Shown here: positions 1 to 50,910 of the stretch, piece by piece
How positions within the stretch are numbered: position 1 is the first letter of the stretch
Layout: each line of letters opens with the position of its first letter
IMG/VR virus record: IMGVR_UViG_3300033475_000035
From: a virus
Length of the DNA: 50,910 nt
Direction: 5' to 3' (one strand)
The notes under the pieces: generated by a model
What the model saw: only the letters and a program-made list of their open reading frames with translations
Told to the model about the DNA's origin: nothing
Databases searched by the model: none
Position numbers and translations under genes: made by a program

Positions 1-127
1 TGGGGTTCTTCGGGGATAGGAGCCTCTGAAGAATATTGATCTAACTCTATGCAGGGGTAATCTTCTGGATTTTGCATGTGAAGACTAAAGTCAAGATTAT
101 ATAAAGCATTAAGTAATTCTCTCTTTA
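1..127. repeat. Exact 127-bp terminal direct repeat, copy 1 (identical to 50784-50910). Circular-closure overlap of the contig.
   Basis: Compared base by base: tggggttcttcgggg...tctctcttta is identical at both ends. Confidence 0.95.
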
Positions 128-2777: not shown

Positions 2778-3158
2778 TTAAGCATAAAATTCGTTAGAGA
2801 AATCAAATATCTCTATAGAAATACCCTCTTCATCATGAGGGTTATAAAGCTTGTAAGCGCGCATAAAGACTATCTGGCTATCATCATTGTATGCAAGTCC
2901 ATTACACGCGTCTAAAACCGCTTTTACGCAATTATCTATGTCTATCTTCCTGTTGTTTTTTAGTATGAATTTTATATCCGCTCCTATAAGCCCATTCATG
3001 GGGCTATAAAGGCCATTTTTTAACATGCAAGCCTTAACATGCCACGCTATCTCCGTTTCATATTCCTTCGTCTGTTTAGGCGTATAAACCCCCTTAGCGC
3101 CAATTCTTGGCCTTTGTTTACTCCGAATCTTTGTTTTTATATGGAGCTTAAGGTTCAT
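2778..3158 (-). CDS. rusA: RusA-family Holliday junction resolvase
   Basis: IDIDNCVKAVLDACNGLAYNDDSQIV matches the RusA D-x-D-N...K-A..D-A....D-D-x-Q-V core. Confidence 0.85.
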   Translation of the reverse strand: MNLKLHIKTKIRSKQRPRIGAKGVYTPKQTKEYETEIAWHVKACMLKNGLYSPMNGLIGADIKFILKNNRKIDIDNCVKAVLDACNGLAYNDDSQIVFMRAYKLYNPHDEEGISIEIFDFSNEFYA

Positions 3159-3367
3159 TCCGGTCTAGCTTCTAAAATCATAATGACACTTCTAAGACCA
3201 TGAATAAGTCCTTGAATAAAGTTATATTGCCTTTTAAACTCCTCATCTCCTCCCAGAGCCCGAGACATTTGTGATAGACTCTTAAGCTCTTGAAGCTTCC
3301 TATTTTGAATTTCTAGGAGTTTTTTCGCGAATTTCTCAGTAAAATCAAGATGTTCTCTATCGCCCAT
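3155..3367 (-). CDS. Hypothetical protein
   Basis: ORF with a 4-nt overlap to rusA, in an operon context. Confidence 0.6.
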   Translation of the reverse strand: MGDREHLDFTEKFAKKLLEIQNRKLQELKSLSQMSRALGGDEEFKRQYNFIQGLIHGLRSVIMILEARPE

Positions 3368-3555: not shown

Positions 3556-3819
3556 TTAATACCTGTACATCTCATCTTCAGAAGAGGTCAGATTGAAAAC
3601 GAGATTCTTAGGAACAATAGAAGAGATAGCAGTTTTATAAATAATCTGACTTGAAGTCGATTCAAGATTGACTAACAATATGCAGGTTCTATTAAACTCT
3701 TGAATATGCCCTGAGAGCTTGATGCCATTTACTAAATATATATTCACCTCACTTCTTCTTCTTTTAAGCTCTTTAAATAAACGATATTCGAGATGATCTT
3801 CTCTTGGTTTTTGTAACAT
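3556..3819 (-). CDS. hfq: Hfq-like Sm-fold RNA chaperone
   Basis: [25 protein letters not shown]...[13 protein letters not shown] aligns with E. coli Hfq [25 protein letters not shown]...QMVYKHAISTVVP. AAGAGGA RBS. Confidence 0.9.
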   Translation of the reverse strand: [87 protein letters not shown]

Positions 3820-3861: not shown

Positions 3862-4065
3862 TTATAAAAGAAAGGTCGATATAATGGACTTCTTTGGTAT
3901 TTTCCAGTATTTTTGTCCTGTTTGCGTTTCCATCAACTTCGCTCTTTTTAATCTGCCATTTTGGCATGCCATGGCTAAACATCTCGGCGTTCTTTCTACA
4001 CCATGGAAATTCAGAAAGCTTATGGCCTCTTTAATAGTAAGATAGTTTTTTTCCACTTTGATCAC
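3862..4065 (-). CDS. Excisionase/AlpA-like HTH DNA-binding protein, first gene of the leftward operon
   Basis: GTG start after GGAGGGAGG. YLTIKEAISFLN...WKIPKKSI resembles 11484-11699. Confidence 0.55.
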   Translation of the reverse strand: MIKVEKNYLTIKEAISFLNFHGVERTPRCLAMACQNGRLKRAKLMETQTGQKYWKIPKKSIISTFLL

Positions 4066-4202: not shown

Positions 4203-4775
4203 ATGGCTAATAAAAAAGGCCGGTCTTCTATTAAAGGTGAGATAGAAGCAGGAAGACCGAGCATGTTAACAAAAGAGACTCACGACAAAATAGTTTATGC
4301 GGTAGGGAAAGGTGCCACATATCTTTTAGCGGCTGAATATGCGCGCATTTCGAAGGAGACATTACGAAGGTGGAAAGCGTGGGGAGAGCAGTTTGAGAGT
4401 GAATTTATCGATGAAAAAATGGATAGCATGACCGCGGAAGAAAAAAAGACTTACCTTGAAGAAATAAGTCAGTTGGAGCGCTATAAGTACTATGCATTAT
4501 GTGTATCTCTACGCGAGGCAAGGGCTACTGATGCCTTGGCTTTATTAGATAGGATAGATGCTGCTTGTGCAGAGGCTAAAGGCTGGGGTGCTGCTGCGTG
4601 GAAATTGGAAAGGGTTCATAGCTATACTGAGAAAAGAGTTGTAGAGAGTAATATTGAGCTTAATGGCAAGGTAGCTAATTTCAATGCTGATATGACAAAT
4701 ATGACTGAAGAGCAGGCGGTTAATCTTTATAAAGATTTCTTAAATAGTCTTTCGAGTCAAGAAGGAGACTTGTGA
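4203..4775 (+). CDS. HTH protein with a terminase-small-subunit-like N-terminus (early regulator or TerS candidate)
   Basis: GRPSMLTKETHDKIVYAVGKGATYLLAAEYARISKETLRRW resembles the common GRPSKY...TIYRW TerS N-terminal HTH. It lies 12 kb from terL. Confidence 0.6.
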   Translation: MANKKGRSSIKGEIEAGRPSMLTKETHDKIVYAVGKGATYLLAAEYARISKETLRRWKAWGEQFESEFIDEKMDSMTAEEKKTYLEEISQLERYKYYALCVSLREARATDALALLDRIDAACAEAKGWGAAAWKLERVHSYTEKRVVESNIELNGKVANFNADMTNMTEEQAVNLYKDFLNSLSSQEGDL

Positions 4776-5466: not shown

Positions 5467-5715
5467 ATGAATGAAGATGTGCTAAGTGATGTGGTTAGGG
5501 CGCAGGTGATATTGCTTCTTAATGATGTAGCAGCAGAATATAAGGAGAAGGAGAGCAGGGGAGTGCTAACTATTACTGACCTGAAAAGGATTTTCGATCA
5601 TATCATCGAAAAGACGGTTTGTGATTATGAAAAAGAAATTAGAGCGACCTGTGTTGAGGTATTTGCTTCGCACGGGATTGATGCAACTATTTTCTTGAAG
5701 GACTTTAAAGGATAA
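5467..5715 (+). CDS. Hypothetical protein, paralogue of 4826-5050
   Basis: AAAGGAG RBS. Shares the motif TL(S/T)..DLK.IFD and the C-terminus. Confidence 0.65.
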   Translation: MNEDVLSDVVRAQVILLLNDVAAEYKEKESRGVLTITDLKRIFDHIIEKTVCDYEKEIRATCVEVFASHGIDATIFLKDFKG

Positions 5716-5752
5716 AGATTAAAAAATATATATTATTTAATAGGAGGTTAAA

Positions 5753-5968
5753 ATGCCTGGATTAGTGTTAACAAGGAGAGTAGGTGAGTCAGTTTTCATT
5801 GGAAGAAAAATAAAGGTGACAGTTATTTCTGCCGCAGGAGGTCAGGCCAAAATTCGGTTTGATGCCCCTGAGGAAGTTGAAATTCACCGAGAAGAGGTTC
5901 TAAATAGAATCTTAGGTGTGGAAGAAGACGGCGATTTCGCCAAGGATGAGCATCAGAACCATGACTAA
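5753..5968 (+). CDS. csrA: CsrA/RsmA-family translational regulator
   Basis: LVLTRRVGESVFIG..IKVTVI...IRFDAPEEVEIHREEV aligns with CsrA [22 protein letters not shown]...IGVNAPKEVSVHREEI. AGGAGG RBS. Confidence 0.9.
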   Translation: MPGLVLTRRVGESVFIGRKIKVTVISAAGGQAKIRFDAPEEVEIHREEVLNRILGVEEDGDFAKDEHQNHD

Positions 5969-6152
5969 GATTGTCGCAAGTCTAGATAATTACATTGCCC
6001 TTTTGAATATGATTAAAGAGTTATATCCGAATGCTACGATAACTCATGATTCCGATATCAATATAAATGTTGAAGTTGAACATCAAATTACGAATATTTG
6101 TATTCGTGGTTATTTACATGATGGAGGTATGGATAGTGTTGACGAATATTGA
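5961..6152 (+). CDS. Hypothetical protein
   Basis: The ATG overlaps the csrA stop region. The upstream part of the track ORF lies inside csrA. Confidence 0.5.
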   Translation: MTKIVASLDNYIALLNMIKELYPNATITHDSDININVEVEHQITNICIRGYLHDGGMDSVDEY

Positions 6153-9846: not shown

Positions 9847-9901
9847 AATGATGGCATGTGAGGTTGGCCTATATTACGTCGATTGGTGAACAGGAGGAAA
9901 T

Positions 9902-9976
9902 ATGGAAATAAAATTTAGGGCCTGGGTGAAACCCCTGGACAAGTTGATGCGGGAAGTTATAAATGAAACCATTTAA
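9902..9976 (+). pseudogene. 24-codon remnant resembling a YopX-family N-terminus
   Basis: AGGAGG RBS then MEIKFRAWVKPLDKLMREVINETI and a stop. IKFRAW is the typical YopX N-terminal motif. Confidence 0.35.
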
Positions 9977-11487: not shown

Positions 11488-11699
11488 TCTAGCTTAAAAT
11501 ATTTAATTAGGTCTTGTTTTCTTACATACCATAAGTACCCGTTTCCTGTTCGAGGCACTGCAATTTTCTGACATGGGAAGCACCCTCTGTTGTAATAACC
11601 TCTGAGGGAAGTTCCTGTTTGGCATATTCCATATGTTTCATAGAGCCACTTGGCTGCTTCTGATAAAGTAAGCTTATCTTCTGATGGTAACTTGCTCAT
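11484..11699 (-). CDS. Excisionase/AlpA-like HTH protein, divergent from the XRE gene
   Basis: LTLSEAAKWLYETYG...WYVRKQDLIKYF. Same architecture as 3862-4065. Confidence 0.6.
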   Translation of the reverse strand: MSKLPSEDKLTLSEAAKWLYETYGICQTGTSLRGYYNRGCFPCQKIAVPRTGNGYLWYVRKQDLIKYFKLD

Positions 11700-11749
11700 G
11701 TTTTATTTCCAGCATATTACAGAATAATTCTAGTTACAGACGGGTGTGT

Positions 11750-11790
11750 TGTCAATATGATGTCAATTTTATTGATAAGAGAATTGATAA
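11750..11790. promoter_or_regulatory. Four phased operator-like half-sites in the divergent intergenic region
   Basis: TGTCAAT at 11750 and 11761. ATTGATAA, the near reverse complement, at 11771 and 11783. Spacing is 10-12 bp. Confidence 0.45.
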
Positions 11791-11833
11791 TTTAATTTTT
11801 TCTGCTATTATTAAAAATTTTAAGGGGGAAGGT

Positions 11834-12178
11834 ATGAGAAAATCAAACAAGTTGAACATTGGTAAAAATATTCGTAGTCTTAGGATTAGGGCCGGGCTTA
11901 CTATTAATGATTTGGCCACAAGGATAGGTGTGACTCATTCATGTCTTCTAGGTCTTGAGAACAGGGCGATGCCTGCTGCGATAAAGAGATTAGATCAAAT
12001 CGCCAATGAGCTTGGGGTTGGGCTTCTAGATATTATTGATGTAGAAAAGAGTAGTATTAAAGAAAGCAATGATTCTTTGTTTTTTGCGAAATGGTCTATT
12101 TTAAAAAAATTATCTAAAAAGGATGCTAAGTTGTTATTAATGATTGCCGAGAAAATTGCCTTGAATAGCAAAAAATAG
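11834..12178 (+). CDS. XRE/Cro-CI-family HTH transcriptional regulator
   Basis: GGGGGAAGG RBS. IGKNIRSLRIRAGLTINDLATRIGVTHSCLLGLENR is a classic HTH_3 pattern. Confidence 0.8.
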   Translation: MRKSNKLNIGKNIRSLRIRAGLTINDLATRIGVTHSCLLGLENRAMPAAIKRLDQIANELGVGLLDIIDVEKSSIKESNDSLFFAKWSILKKLSKKDAKLLLMIAEKIALNSKK

Positions 12179-12839: not shown

Positions 12840-12993
12840 TACATTAATCGAGTTACAGAATAGAATAAGAAATAGGATTTTTGAGTGGGAAGAGTCTCAT
12901 GTATTTTATACTAGTGATATAGTTCAGGGGTTGCAGGAAGCTTCTGACATAATTGATGACATGCTAAAGGAGTTAAAGAAATATGAGCGATAA
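12832..12993 (+). CDS. Small hypothetical protein (53 aa), not in the ORF track
   Basis: Manual translation is MINTLIELQNRIRNRIFEWEESHVFYTSDIVQGLQEASDIIDDMLKELKKYER. It overlaps both neighbouring genes in typical operon style and fills a gap. Confidence 0.35.
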   Translation: MINTLIELQNRIRNRIFEWEESHVFYTSDIVQGLQEASDIIDDMLKELKKYER

Positions 12994-13492
12994 TATAAGT
13001 ATTGGAAGTGAAAGGGTTAGAGCTGCTTTCAATCCAAGTGGGAATGATATGGTAACTATTCTTAAGGAACAAACAGCTGTCTTGATTGATCACTGCGAAG
13101 CGTTGAAAAGACTAGATGGTCGTCTTGCGTCTTTAGCTCAAACAGCTTATGAGGAAGCATGCATGTGGGCAGTTAAAGCAGCTACAACTCAACCAAATGG
13201 CTTCCCTGTGCGTAATCCAGATAATTTTCATATTACACAGTCTGTAGATGACCAAGATTTTCATGATGTATGGATAGATGTTACTGAGCGGTTACCAATG
13301 CCTAACCAAGTTGTGCTGGTGTTGGGTGAGAATTATGAAGGCACGCGGCCTTTTACAGCTAGATATTATGAGGTTGAGAAGCAAATAGATTGGTTCTCTA
13401 ATACCGACCGTGCTCCAATTTCCAATGTGACGCATTGGATGCCCGTTCCATCGATATCATCGCATAGGATAAGGATAAAAAAGGATGAGTGA
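12983..13492 (+). CDS. Two-domain protein: an N-terminal helical hairpin (NPSG...MWAVKA motif) plus a C-terminal DUF551-like domain
   Basis: The N-terminus is RVRAAFNPSGNDMVTILKEQTAVLIDHCE...LASLAQTAYEEACMWAVKAAT. The C-terminus is WIDVTERLP...VLVL...NVTHWMPVP. Confidence 0.7.
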   Translation: MSDNISIGSERVRAAFNPSGNDMVTILKEQTAVLIDHCEALKRLDGRLASLAQTAYEEACMWAVKAATTQPNGFPVRNPDNFHITQSVDDQDFHDVWIDVTERLPMPNQVVLVLGENYEGTRPFTARYYEVEKQIDWFSNTDRAPISNVTHWMPVPSISSHRIRIKKDE

Positions 13493-14772: not shown

Positions 14773-15396
14773 ATGACATTTGAAAAGGAATATAGAGTAA
14801 AGATTGGGGTAAGAAATAATCTTATACTGAGAAAAATTGAAGGACTTGGTTGTAAGAGCGTTAGTGAGTTTTGCAGAGTATATAATTTGAGCGCAACCCT
14901 TGTGAATTCTATTATAGCAATGACCCTCTCTCCTTTAACTTCTTCTGGATTCCCCCGCCGCATAGTGCAGGAGCTTCTTGATATATTTAATTGTGGTTTG
15001 GATGATTTATTTACTGAAAATCAAATTAATACCAAGCTTGAGCATTCCACCCGTCAAGTGGAGGTTTCTGAGACGGAAGCCGCTTATTATCTGCAGTCTC
15101 AATCATATAATATTGTTGAAAATATGCTTGAACATGAGTCTCAGGAGATAATCGATAAGCAAATTTTTGGTCATCTTGGTAGTCTGTCACCAAGAGAGCA
15201 ATTAGTAATTAAGGCTAGATTTGGACTTGATGGGAATCCTGAGCAAACCCTTGCTGAAATAGCAAAAGAACAAAGATTGAGCATGGAAAGAATTAGGGGT
15301 ATTGAAGCTAGAGCATTAAGAAAGCTGAGATGGAGGTTTTGTAGAGAGAGTGGCTTAGTGCATCACCCTTGGGGTAGATTTACAACATCTTATTAA
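14773..15396 (+). CDS. Sigma-70 region-4 domain protein with an N-terminal HTH. No recognisable region 2.
   Basis: LSPREQLVIKARFGLDGNPEQTLAEIAKEQRLSMERIRGIEARALRKLR matches sigma-70 region 4 (LTPREEKVLRMRFGI....TLEEVG..F.VTRERIRQIEAKALRKLR). Confidence 0.8.
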   Translation: MTFEKEYRVKIGVRNNLILRKIEGLGCKSVSEFCRVYNLSATLVNSIIAMTLSPLTSSGFPRRIVQELLDIFNCGLDDLFTENQINTKLEHSTRQVEVSETEAAYYLQSQSYNIVENMLEHESQEIIDKQIFGHLGSLSPREQLVIKARFGLDGNPEQTLAEIAKEQRLSMERIRGIEARALRKLRWRFCRESGLVHHPWGRFTTSY

Positions 15397-46806: not shown

Positions 46807-46834
46807 TTGACCATAAAATATGTGATGGTATAAT
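46807..46834 (+). promoter_or_regulatory. Near-consensus sigma-70 promoter with an extended -10 and no downstream plus-strand ORF
   Basis: TTGACC (46807-46812), 16-nt spacer, TGG-TATAAT (46826-46834). Confidence 0.65.
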
Positions 46835-46840
46835 ACAAAT

Positions 46841-46917
46841 GCGCGTGGCGGAATGCTACTCAAAAACCCTACGGAGTGGTAGTTCGAAGAACTGCTTTAC
46901 ATATAAGCGCCGCCACA
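46841..46917 (+). ncRNA. Candidate small structured RNA with a tRNA-like cloverleaf (not a canonical tRNA)
   Basis: 7-bp closing stem GTGGCGG/CCGCCAC (46845-51 / 46910-16) and a 2-nt linker. Three hairpins follow: 46854-81, 46882-92 and 46893-909. The last has a 5-bp stem and 7-nt loop abutting the 3' strand. The G-U pairs only work on the plus strand. Confidence 0.45.
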
Positions 46918-46927
46918 AGCATTCTTC

Positions 46928-47170
46928 TTATAACTCTCCAGTTACTTTATAGAATGTCCACTCATCTTCTTCTTGGTCAGGAATTTCTGGATAAGGAATA
47001 GGTTCTGAGCCCAATAAAAATTGATTTAATCCCTTTACTATGGCATCTGCTTCATGCTGTTGGCAATCCATTAGTTCTGCAACATGCCTTACTGCTTTAC
47101 CAGTCTCAGCAAAAGCAACTCGAAATCGTTGTTTATTAACGCCCTTTTTATGTTGAATAATATAATACAT
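46928..47170 (-). CDS. Hypothetical protein
   Basis: AAGAGA RBS. 80 aa. Confidence 0.6.
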   Translation of the reverse strand: MYYIIQHKKGVNKQRFRVAFAETGKAVRHVAELMDCQQHEADAIVKGLNQFLLGSEPIPYPEIPDQEEDEWTFYKVTGEL

Positions 47171-47279: not shown

Positions 47280-47319
47280 AAAAAAAGCCCGTAGAGCTTT
47301 TTAAGGCAATACGGGCTTT
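47280..47319 (-). terminator. Rho-independent terminator (minus strand)
   Basis: On the minus strand, AAAGCCCGTA, 16-nt loop, TACGGGCTTT, followed by a T7 run. Confidence 0.7.
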
Positions 47320-47409: not shown

Positions 47410-48084
47410 TTATCCACATACTTCGTCAGTTCCCCCTCTTATCGGCTCTGCAATCATCCCAAATGGCCTGAGTCCATATAATTTTTCAGGGAGATAAAAG
47501 TGGTGATCAAGATAAACTTCATTGTAGTATGAGCCAGGTTCTACAGCTTCTACAGGAACTCTTATCGTTGTAGATCTAATGATGTTCGCTATGGGTTTGT
47601 GAAGCTTGCACATTCCATCATAGTAGCGGTGATCTGAAGGACTATGACTAAAAGTTAATCCACTATTAGTGTGGTGAGTAGGCTTAGCAATTTTTCCATT
47701 TAAACAGGAATACCCTCGCATATCTTCAATATATACCTCGGAATCCATCGTAAAGAAATAATTATAGGTCAGATAGTCATAGTAAAGAATAAAACTATTT
47801 CTATCATTAATCTGATTAATAGAGCTTAATACCTTACTGCTAACAGCAAATGGTGTTATGGTTTTGGTCGATATATATTGCCTTCCAAGCTCATCAGTAA
47901 ATATAGTTCCAGCCTCGACTGGAGCAGCTTTATGGCCTATATTATGAGTATCTCCCGATACAATAATATGGCCTGTCGCCTTTTTACCAGGAACACACTG
48001 ACTGCTTGCATAGACTACTGAGTAACTGAGAAGAAGCAGAATTAAAAAGCACGTGCATATCATTATTGTTCTTTGTGTTTGCAT
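47410..48084 (-). CDS. Secreted protein with a cleavable signal peptide (moron candidate)
   Basis: N-terminus MQTQRTIMICTCFLILLLLSYSVVYA-SSQ. AAGGAG RBS. Has its own terminator. Confidence 0.7.
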   Translation of the reverse strand: MQTQRTIMICTCFLILLLLSYSVVYASSQCVPGKKATGHIIVSGDTHNIGHKAAPVEAGTIFTDELGRQYISTKTITPFAVSSKVLSSINQINDRNSFILYYDYLTYNYFFTMDSEVYIEDMRGYSCLNGKIAKPTHHTNSGLTFSHSPSDHRYYDGMCKLHKPIANIIRSTTIRVPVEAVEPGSYYNEVYLDHHFYLPEKLYGLRPFGMIAEPIRGGTDEVCG

Positions 48085-50570: not shown

Positions 50571-50910
50571 TATCTAATTTCCTGGGCGCCAATTTTAGAT
50601 AAAGCATTGTTAATAACTGAAAGCCCAAAAAATTCCTTTTCATCGTCGTCCCAGCCAACAACGGTATTCCTTAAATCATTAATAGTTTTAATACCTTTAT
50701 GAGCAAGGGATTTCTTCATGCCTTCTGGTATATCCAATAGTGAGATAGAAGTAAATAAATCTTCCTCATAATCATCTTTTACCTGGGGTTCTTCGGGGAT
50801 AGGAGCCTCTGAAGAATATTGATCTAACTCTATGCAGGGGTAATCTTCTGGATTTTGCATGTGAAGACTAAAGTCAAGATTATATAAAGCATTAAGTAAT
50901 TCTCTCTTTA
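50570..50910 (-). CDS. 3' part of the junction-spanning gene (true start at 290 after circularisation; 167 aa in total). Carries an alpha-CTD-like HhH C-terminus.
   Basis: ISLLDIPEGMKKSLAHKGIKTINDLRNT. The frame stays open to the window end and continues in 1-290. Confidence 0.7.
   Translation of the reverse strand, partial: KRELLNALYNLDFSLHMQNPEDYPCIELDQYSSEAPIPEEPQVKDDYEEDLFTSISLLDIPEGMKKSLAHKGIKTINDLRNTVVGWDDDEKEFFGLSVINNALSKIGAQEIR
50784..50910. repeat. Exact 127-bp terminal direct repeat, copy 2
   Basis: Identical to 1-127. Confidence 0.95.

Follow-up and report, generated by a model that had tools for sequence, protein, structure and literature searches.

What is a homologue of CsrA, a translational regulator of bacteria, doing in the genome of a virus: does it belong to the virus, has it kept what an RNA-binding protein of this family needs, and on whose messages would it act? 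The question is raised by a short gene in the IMG/VR virus record IMGVR_UViG_3300033475_000035, all 50,910 nucleotides of which (the window) were analysed here; the coordinates of the main features are collected in Table 1.

As to the identity of the gene, the open reading frame begins with ATG, fills its interval exactly with 71 codons, and is preceded, at a distance of 5 nt, by AGGAGG, a strong ribosome-binding site. Its full translation (MPGLVLTRRVGESVFIGRKIKVTVISAAGGQAKIRFDAPEEVEIHREEVLNRILGVEEDGDFAKDEHQNHD) matches Pfam PF02599 at 68.6 bits (E 4.4e-19, profile positions 2-51 of 53), with the gathering cutoff at 27 bits, PHROG 9500, 'CsrA-like regulator', at 70.9 bits (E 1.4e-19, profile positions 2-57 of 65), and solved CsrA/RsmA/RsmE chains of the PDB at E of about 2e-12. 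A preliminary description of this DNA, which had recognised a CsrA-type core by its LTRRVGE and IHREEV motifs, is thus borne out by both the translation and the CsrA HMM, and, judged by these profile scores, the family assignment is far beyond chance resemblance. The two NCBIfam equivalogs, TIGR00202 and NF002469, are both just missed (67.8 versus a cutoff of 70.1 and 67.0 versus a cutoff of 73, respectively), and the protein is therefore a member of the family but not of the housekeeping orthologue type; such sub-equivalog scores fit a diverged accessory copy. The gene is an intact but divergent phage-borne copy of the bacterial regulator. A different reading, of CsrA and Hfq of this phage as parts of a defence system, was dropped, as PADLOC gave zero matches for both proteins.

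The residues implicated in RNA recognition are in place. L4 and R44 are critical for CsrA RNA binding (PMC7652899), and the phage protein keeps, in E. coli numbering, L2, L4, T5, R6, R7, E10, H43, R44, E45, and E46, the equivalents in its own numbering including L6 (=L4), R8, R9, E12, H45, R46 (=R44, in IHREEV), E47, and E48. The Arg44 equivalent, on whose presence the preliminary description had staked its reading of the protein, is therefore retained. Residue conservation was taken from an alignment of the phage protein with 91 relatives, across which R8, A38, and E48 never vary and R46 is retained in 99%, and the phage protein also follows the residue present in at least 90% of them at L4, L6, T7, G11, E12, G17, T23, V24, G29, Q31, P39, H45, R46, E47, R52, and I53. 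Departures from the residue present in at least 60% include K26A, N28G, V30A, R31K, G33R, K38E, and Y48L, among others, with G33R falling where 92% of the compared sequences have Gly; D16R and E17K are also carried. An AlphaFold2 model built on the same alignment has a mean pLDDT of 87.6, with values above 90 in the core and about 57-67 over residues 56-71, and the top 15 Foldseek matches to it are all CsrA/RsmA/RsmE chains, the best of them at rmsd 0.9-1.2 Å and TM 0.82-0.92 (normalised to target), as measured on the predicted fold. The model predicts the five beta-strands and the C-terminal helix of solved CsrA, on which it superposes, and it leaves beta1 and beta5 unpaired in the single chain, as would be expected if these strands pair with a second subunit in a homodimer. 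The tail (EEDGDFAKDEHQNHD) has a net charge of -6, which, along with the low pLDDT, suggests that it is probably disordered, and the whole protein has a net charge of -4 and a pI of 5.3, versus a charge of +1 for E. coli CsrA. The tail had been singled out in the preliminary description as acidic and diverged; acidic it is, but among 168 compared sequences such acidity is found in the tails of 17, counting the query itself, and the property is a tendency, not a unique feature.

With respect to its relatives, the protein stands apart. A HMMER search of 1.84 billion representatives returned 6168 matches at E<=1e-3, and, the protein itself set aside, none of about 15 billion proteins exceeds approximately 60% identity. 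Word-indexed homologue searches with the phage CsrA and Hfq retrieved nothing beyond the two queries. Over the 52 residues of the core, identity is 60% to the three nearest metagenomic proteins, 52% to the copy of Providencia phage PSTCR8lys, 50% to E. coli CsrA, 48% to the copy of Pseudomonas phage F116, and 44% to the copy of the Legionella pneumophila plasmid pLPP. Placement relied on identity and on nearest-neighbour resampling, and none of the sequences ranked nearest in more than 33 of 200 column resamplings, so that, on the sequences compared, the protein is an isolated long branch, a divergent singleton. The comparison with the Legionella mobile elements made in the preliminary description does not hold at the sequence level: no nearest neighbour is stable, and the pLPP copy, a plasmid sequence and the only Legionella one compared, is less similar than E. 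coli CsrA, by which an affinity to it was ruled out. One IMG/VR CsrA match, found with a single-sequence query, possesses the same MPGLVLTR N-terminus but has no other gene in common with the phage (L005). Many of the top-scoring relatives (P0002, P0003, P0005, P0009, and others) have two to four tandem CsrA domains in one polypeptide, and these may be covalently linked 'single-chain dimers.'

Possession of a csrA gene is in itself not uncommon among mobile elements. Relatives of CsrA were detected by tblastn in 90 of 50,697 GenBank phage records, mostly those of Pseudomonas F116-like and Vibrio phages, and by a pattern scan in at least 515 contigs of IMG/VR, and plasmid records encoding CsrA number 268, with Pseudomonas (142), Piscirickettsia (39), and Legionella (30) represented. 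Phage RsmA/CsrA genes have been described as widespread and as correlating with hosts that have CsrA, and they have been proposed to suppress host functions, including CRISPR-Cas, which RsmA represses (Campa et al., 2021, PMC8450108, with references to previous notes on F116 and DC1 and to a survey of copies found on prophages, plasmids, and ICEs). These counts, that publication, and the existence of a PHROG of its own (9500) make phage CsrA an already known kind of protein, and the preliminary view of an accessory CsrA on a phage as unusual is overstated.

As to the vehicle, the first and the last 127 bases of the window are identical, indicating a complete, circularly closed genome of approximately 50.78 kb. 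The genome, of 37% GC, encodes a large terminase, a portal, an HK97-type major head protein, a tail sheath, by which the tail is of the contractile type, an endolysin, a Sak4-like annealing protein, and a RusA resolvase. No tRNA genes were found in it, no partition gene was seen, and no recombinase or integrase was present among the scanned ORFs of at least 300 aa, the rest of that size lying inside the tail/baseplate block. A 'virulent or episomal myovirus,' as the preliminary description had it, is supported as far as the contractile tail goes, and the absence of a detected integrase fits such a lifestyle, but an XRE-type HTH protein of the repressor type, encoded at 11684-12178, leaves the option of a temperate, non-integrating phage. 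The gene at 14773-15396 (+), immediately before those for packaging and structure, encodes a protein containing Sigma-70 region 4 (Sigma70_r4, 50.5 bits), likely a late-gene activator or a sigma-like factor of the phage. The same DNA has been independently assembled from four other samples at 99.9% identity or higher, so that the gene order is not an assembly accident, and the other contigs with this csrA gene represent the same phage (at least 99.9% identity). Megablast of 5 kb against phage records gave zero matches, and scans of genome contigs with CsrA and TerL found no relatives. The best TerL match to known phages is at 38%, the matches being spread over phages of Vibrio, Pseudoalteromonas, Burkholderia, and Acinetobacter, and neither CsrA nor Hfq is encoded within 10 kb of two distant TerL relatives (approximately 50% identity; L103 and L105).

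Within this genome, two operons diverge from a control region that contains a promoter-like site at 4128-4100 on the minus strand. The leftward operon consists of an HTH gene (3862-4065), hfq, two small ORFs, and the RusA gene, and it continues across the circle junction to the Sak4 gene. The rightward operon begins with the gene at 4206-4775, and csrA is its sixth called gene, a position by which it is probably expressed early. The ATG of the following ORF overlaps the csrA stop codon (ATGA), suggesting that the two are probably translationally coupled; the 63-aa product of this ORF has no match in Pfam. The GC3 of csrA, 0.36, is inside the range of the other phage genes, arguing against recent capture. 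Other genes of this region deserve mention. A response regulator made up of a receiver alone (1438-1824, +; Pfam, 54 bits) has CheY as its best PDB matches; on visual inspection the acidic pocket is there, as are the phospho-acceptor Asp and the positions of Ser and Lys, and an output domain is lacking. This protein could act on a host two-component system as a sink of phosphate. The product of 12983-13492 (+) has an Acb2/Tad1 hairpin domain (42.7 bits versus a cutoff of 27) fused to DUF551 and is a candidate sponge of cyclic-nucleotide immune signals (anti-CBASS or anti-Thoeris). With Hfq, the receiver, and the Acb2/Tad1 protein all in this early region of accessory genes, the neighbourhood is rich in candidates for host manipulation. 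Small early genes that are paralogous by eye are also present (4826-5050/5467-5715; 6269-6514/9351-9614; 9963-10202/10189-10623/13571-14044); one such pair, with the common C-terminus ...HGID..IFLKD.K, adjoins csrA upstream, and three such genes start with MKPFNLE.ALAG.

Table 1. Features of the csrA locus and of the window to which the text refers.
Feature	Position	Strand	Basis
Exact direct repeat, 127 bp, of 50784-50910	1..127	none	terminal overlap
Gene of an 87-aa Hfq homologue, second in the leftward early operon	3556..3819	-	Pfam Hfq, 56.2 bits
Divergent intergenic control region, 140 bp, between the leftward and rightward operons	4066..4205		gene layout
Four GGA motifs around the csrA start (5700, 5710, 5743 in the Shine-Dalgarno sequence, 5759)	5700..5761	+	
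csrA Shine-Dalgarno sequence AGGAGG, containing a GGA	5742..5747	+	direct sequence reading
csrA-family gene, 71 aa	5753..5968	+	ORF; Pfam, PHROG, PDB, and AF2/Foldseek matches
CsrA core	residues 4-55		
Acidic tail, probably disordered	residues 56-71		
Next ORF, 63 aa, no known family	5961..6152	+	sequence; gene call on identical contigs

What then would such a protein do? The explanation we favour, with moderate confidence, is that of a mimic, expressed early, which would occupy GGA sites and supply CsrA activity that the host does not control. The protein would be made by the phage itself, early in infection if the position of the gene is a guide, as a functional RNA-binding protein, and it would act as a homodimer, like cellular CsrA. 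Its two beta1/beta5 surfaces (L6, R8, R9, and V42 to V49, including R46) would grip GGA in single-stranded or hairpin-loop RNA, the targets typically overlapping Shine-Dalgarno sequences. Host mRNAs and host sponge RNAs of the CsrB/RsmZ type would be bound, and the cell may thus be driven into a 'CsrA-high' state, in which the programmes for stationary phase, biofilm, and storage are repressed, as is CRISPR-Cas in some bacteria, favouring phage replication; through the four GGA motifs at its own start, the protein would perhaps also repress its own translation. Family membership, the binding residues, the predicted fold, and the phage context support this explanation, and dimerisation, GGA binding, timing, and host targets are what we infer in addition. 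Counting against it are the sub-equivalog scores, the departures on the surface, recent work in which CsrA specificity proved labile and did not follow from sequence identity (PMC13443453), and a weak GGA signal in the leader.

The last of these points bears on an alternative that we consider unlikely but not negligible, in which the protein is mainly a translational repressor of early phage messages, including its own. A precedent is T4 RegA, a small phage protein that binds the ribosome-binding regions of mRNAs and represses translation, including that of its own message. For CsrA, recognition of GGA in loops, bridging of sites 10-63 nt apart, and autoregulation of csrA are established (PMC7652899), and the leader of the phage gene has GGA at -53, -43, -10 (in the Shine-Dalgarno sequence), and +6, with spacings of 10-33 nt that fit this range and so would suit dual-site bridging. 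In the interval from -60 to +12, four or more GGA are found in only 5 of the 85 phage genes, csrA included, and three or more in 11 of 85, several of them early genes (for example, 3862-4065 and 3155-3367). However, GGA is part of the ordinary Shine-Dalgarno sequence AGGAGG and is found in the Shine-Dalgarno zone of 47 of the 85 genes, so these counts carry little specificity; likewise, the csrA leader folds no better than shuffled sequences, and no SELEX-like RUACARGGAUGU site is present in the phage genome. Given how common GGA is in these zones and how the leader folds, autoregulation of csrA is only a hint, and the four motifs are candidate autoregulatory CsrA sites, a status that we infer only from the sequence. 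In addition, csrA in the other phages F116 and PSTCR8lys is found beside the cI repressor gene, suggesting a host-directed function, which counts against this alternative.

A related question is whether the phage supplies an RNA partner for its CsrA. An Rfam scan of the phage genome found no CsrB, RsmY, RsmZ, or other family above threshold, and at E<=1 it gave a single match, sub-threshold and unrelated; the peaks of GGA density fall in coding sequence, and no non-coding GGA-dense stretch of the CsrB/RsmZ sponge type was found in the genome. The GGA-rich gap at 9847-9962 was considered as a sponge RNA and rejected, as it holds a small ORF with its own Shine-Dalgarno sequence; a sponge RNA, if any, would be that of the host. 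One structured RNA candidate is apparent elsewhere: a near-consensus sigma-70 promoter (TTGACC-16-TGgTATAAT; region 46807-46932, +) lies directly before a multi-hairpin sequence of approximately 86 nt (46838-46923, +) with an MFE of -31.4 kcal/mol (z = -3.7, with 0 of 200 shuffles as good), whose 3' end converges on the stop codon of the minus-strand gene 46928-47170. This candidate is neither a tRNA (ARAGORN) nor a member of an Rfam family, and, having only two GGA, none of them in a loop, it is not a CsrA sponge; that it may be a client of the phage Hfq is speculation. Downstream of the gene 47410-48084 on the minus strand, a hairpin with a flanking A-run and T-run (AAAAAGCCCGTAGAGCTTTTT; 47282-47302) resembles an intrinsic terminator that would work in both directions; it overlaps a sub-threshold Rfam match to PK-repBA (24 versus 45 bits), which is probably due to chance.

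The second RNA-binding protein of this phage, Hfq, is as real as the preliminary description had assumed (Table 1). It matches solved Hfq structures in the PDB at E 2e-12 and has 46% identity with the core of E. coli Hfq, with no match to any PHROG family. The distal-face segment YLVNGIKL and the arginine-rich rim are retained, and the alignment places T at the F42 and H57 positions of the proximal face, which binds sRNA, and reveals a three-residue insertion. The best PDB match, 3inz, which we take to be the H57T mutant of Pseudomonas aeruginosa Hfq, reads YKTAIS at the Sm2 motif, as does the phage protein. Searched by tblastn against the 50,697 phage records, the phage Hfq gave 4 matches, all to bacterial-looking contigs filed as phage, and a Bacillus subtilis Hfq query gave one plausible phage MAG, MT835489.1, along with further records of bacterial type, placing Hfq in at most one plausible record of the 50,697. 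A profile-derived scan of IMG/VR for Hfq gave 17 unvetted contigs, none of which encodes CsrA within 10 kb, and, conversely, none of 81 sampled IMG/VR CsrA loci (±10 kb) encodes Hfq; the phrase 'phage-encoded Hfq' was not found in the literature searched. Hfq is therefore really rare on phages, and the CsrA and Hfq combination is unique to this genome within the limits of the ±10-kb loci sampled. So while CsrA by itself is of a known kind, the preliminary description was right in calling its occurrence together with Hfq unusual, and the unusual element here is Hfq and the pairing. It is tempting to extend the mimic explanation to a takeover kit, in which the phage CsrA, the F42T/H57T Hfq, the receiver, draining phosphate from a kinase of the BarA/GacS type, and at least one promoter-driven structured sRNA (46838-46923) would replace or override both RNA-regulatory hubs of the host during infection; we put this forward with low confidence.

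A quite unlikely alternative reverses the sign of the action, making the protein an antagonist or a decoy that would form inactive heterodimers with the host CsrA or soak up a partner of it (a sponge RNA, or a protein of the FliW/CesT type), with the tail or the charge-swapped surface altering or autoinhibiting RNA binding. It would account for the acidity of the protein and of its tail as compared to E. coli CsrA, for the charge reversals D16R/E17K and K38E, and for an arginine at a mostly glycine position (G33R), and solved structures do show partners binding CsrA near the helix (5z38, CesT; 5dmb, FliW). However, every residue known as critical for RNA binding is intact, comparably acidic tails are carried by the other sequences counted above, and no partner-like gene was found to be conserved next to phage csrA genes. 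The remaining alternative, of csrA as misassembled host DNA or a decaying passenger with no phage function, could appeal to the origin of the contig in a metagenome assembly and to the lack of close relatives of the protein, but it is nearly excluded by the independent assemblies from four other samples, the self-closure of the contig via the 127-bp repeat, the location of csrA among phage genes on its own strand, where stop and start codons overlap, and an intact ORF with a strong Shine-Dalgarno sequence, functional residues kept, and phage-like GC3.

Overall, the significance of the locus lies mainly in the combination. In many Proteobacteria, post-transcriptional control has two global RNA-binding hubs, CsrA and Hfq. 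Taken alone, csrA adds a divergent example to the known phage, plasmid, and ICE copies, and its divergence could be helpful in studying how specificity drifts once a protein is freed from housekeeping constraints. Should the two proteins both have host RNAs as targets, the phage would represent an experiment of nature in how a virus takes over bacterial riboregulation, as well as a source of compact, orthogonal RNA-binding parts.

How does this protein compare with known systems? T4 RegA is a functional analogue only, its fold and family being unrelated, and it acts on phage early mRNAs. The chromosomal proteins of Gammaproteobacteria, E. coli CsrA, P. aeruginosa RsmA, and P. fluorescens RsmE (1y00, 1vpz, 2jpp), have the same domain, length class, and predicted fold (to approximately 1 Å, with TM 0.86-0.92 normalised to the target), and the critical L4, R6, R7, E10, R44, E45, and E46 are common to them and the phage copy. 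The latter differs in a core only about 50% identical, a two-residue N-terminal extension (MPG-), a charge-swapped surface, G33R, the acidic tail, and a net charge of -4, and, in contrast to the chromosomal Csr/Rsm systems, it is phage-borne, with no sponge RNA of the CsrB/RsmZ type found on the phage genome. Among mobile elements, accessory CsrA copies include the pLPP and ICE copies of Legionella, such as LvrC/CsrT, the Sinorhizobium plasmid RsmA, and the Pseudomonas plasmid RsmQ (PMC9928087), and these paralogues presumably take over or retune the host Csr/Rsm regulon; the copy described here differs in being carried by a virus, outside any conjugation or T4SS context. The phage RsmA/CsrA homologues (F116 gp24, PSTCR8lys, Serratia phage Parlo, Burkholderia phage DC1, and others listed in PMC8450108) are likewise encoded in the non-structural region of tailed phages and have the same proposed role of manipulating host post-transcriptional control. 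The copy described here is 48-52% identical in the core to those of F116 and PSTCR8lys and does not group stably with a copy from any phage, and, whereas these two phages are temperate and have csrA by cI, in this genome the gene is part of a presumptive early lytic operon, with no detected integrase and with Hfq also encoded.
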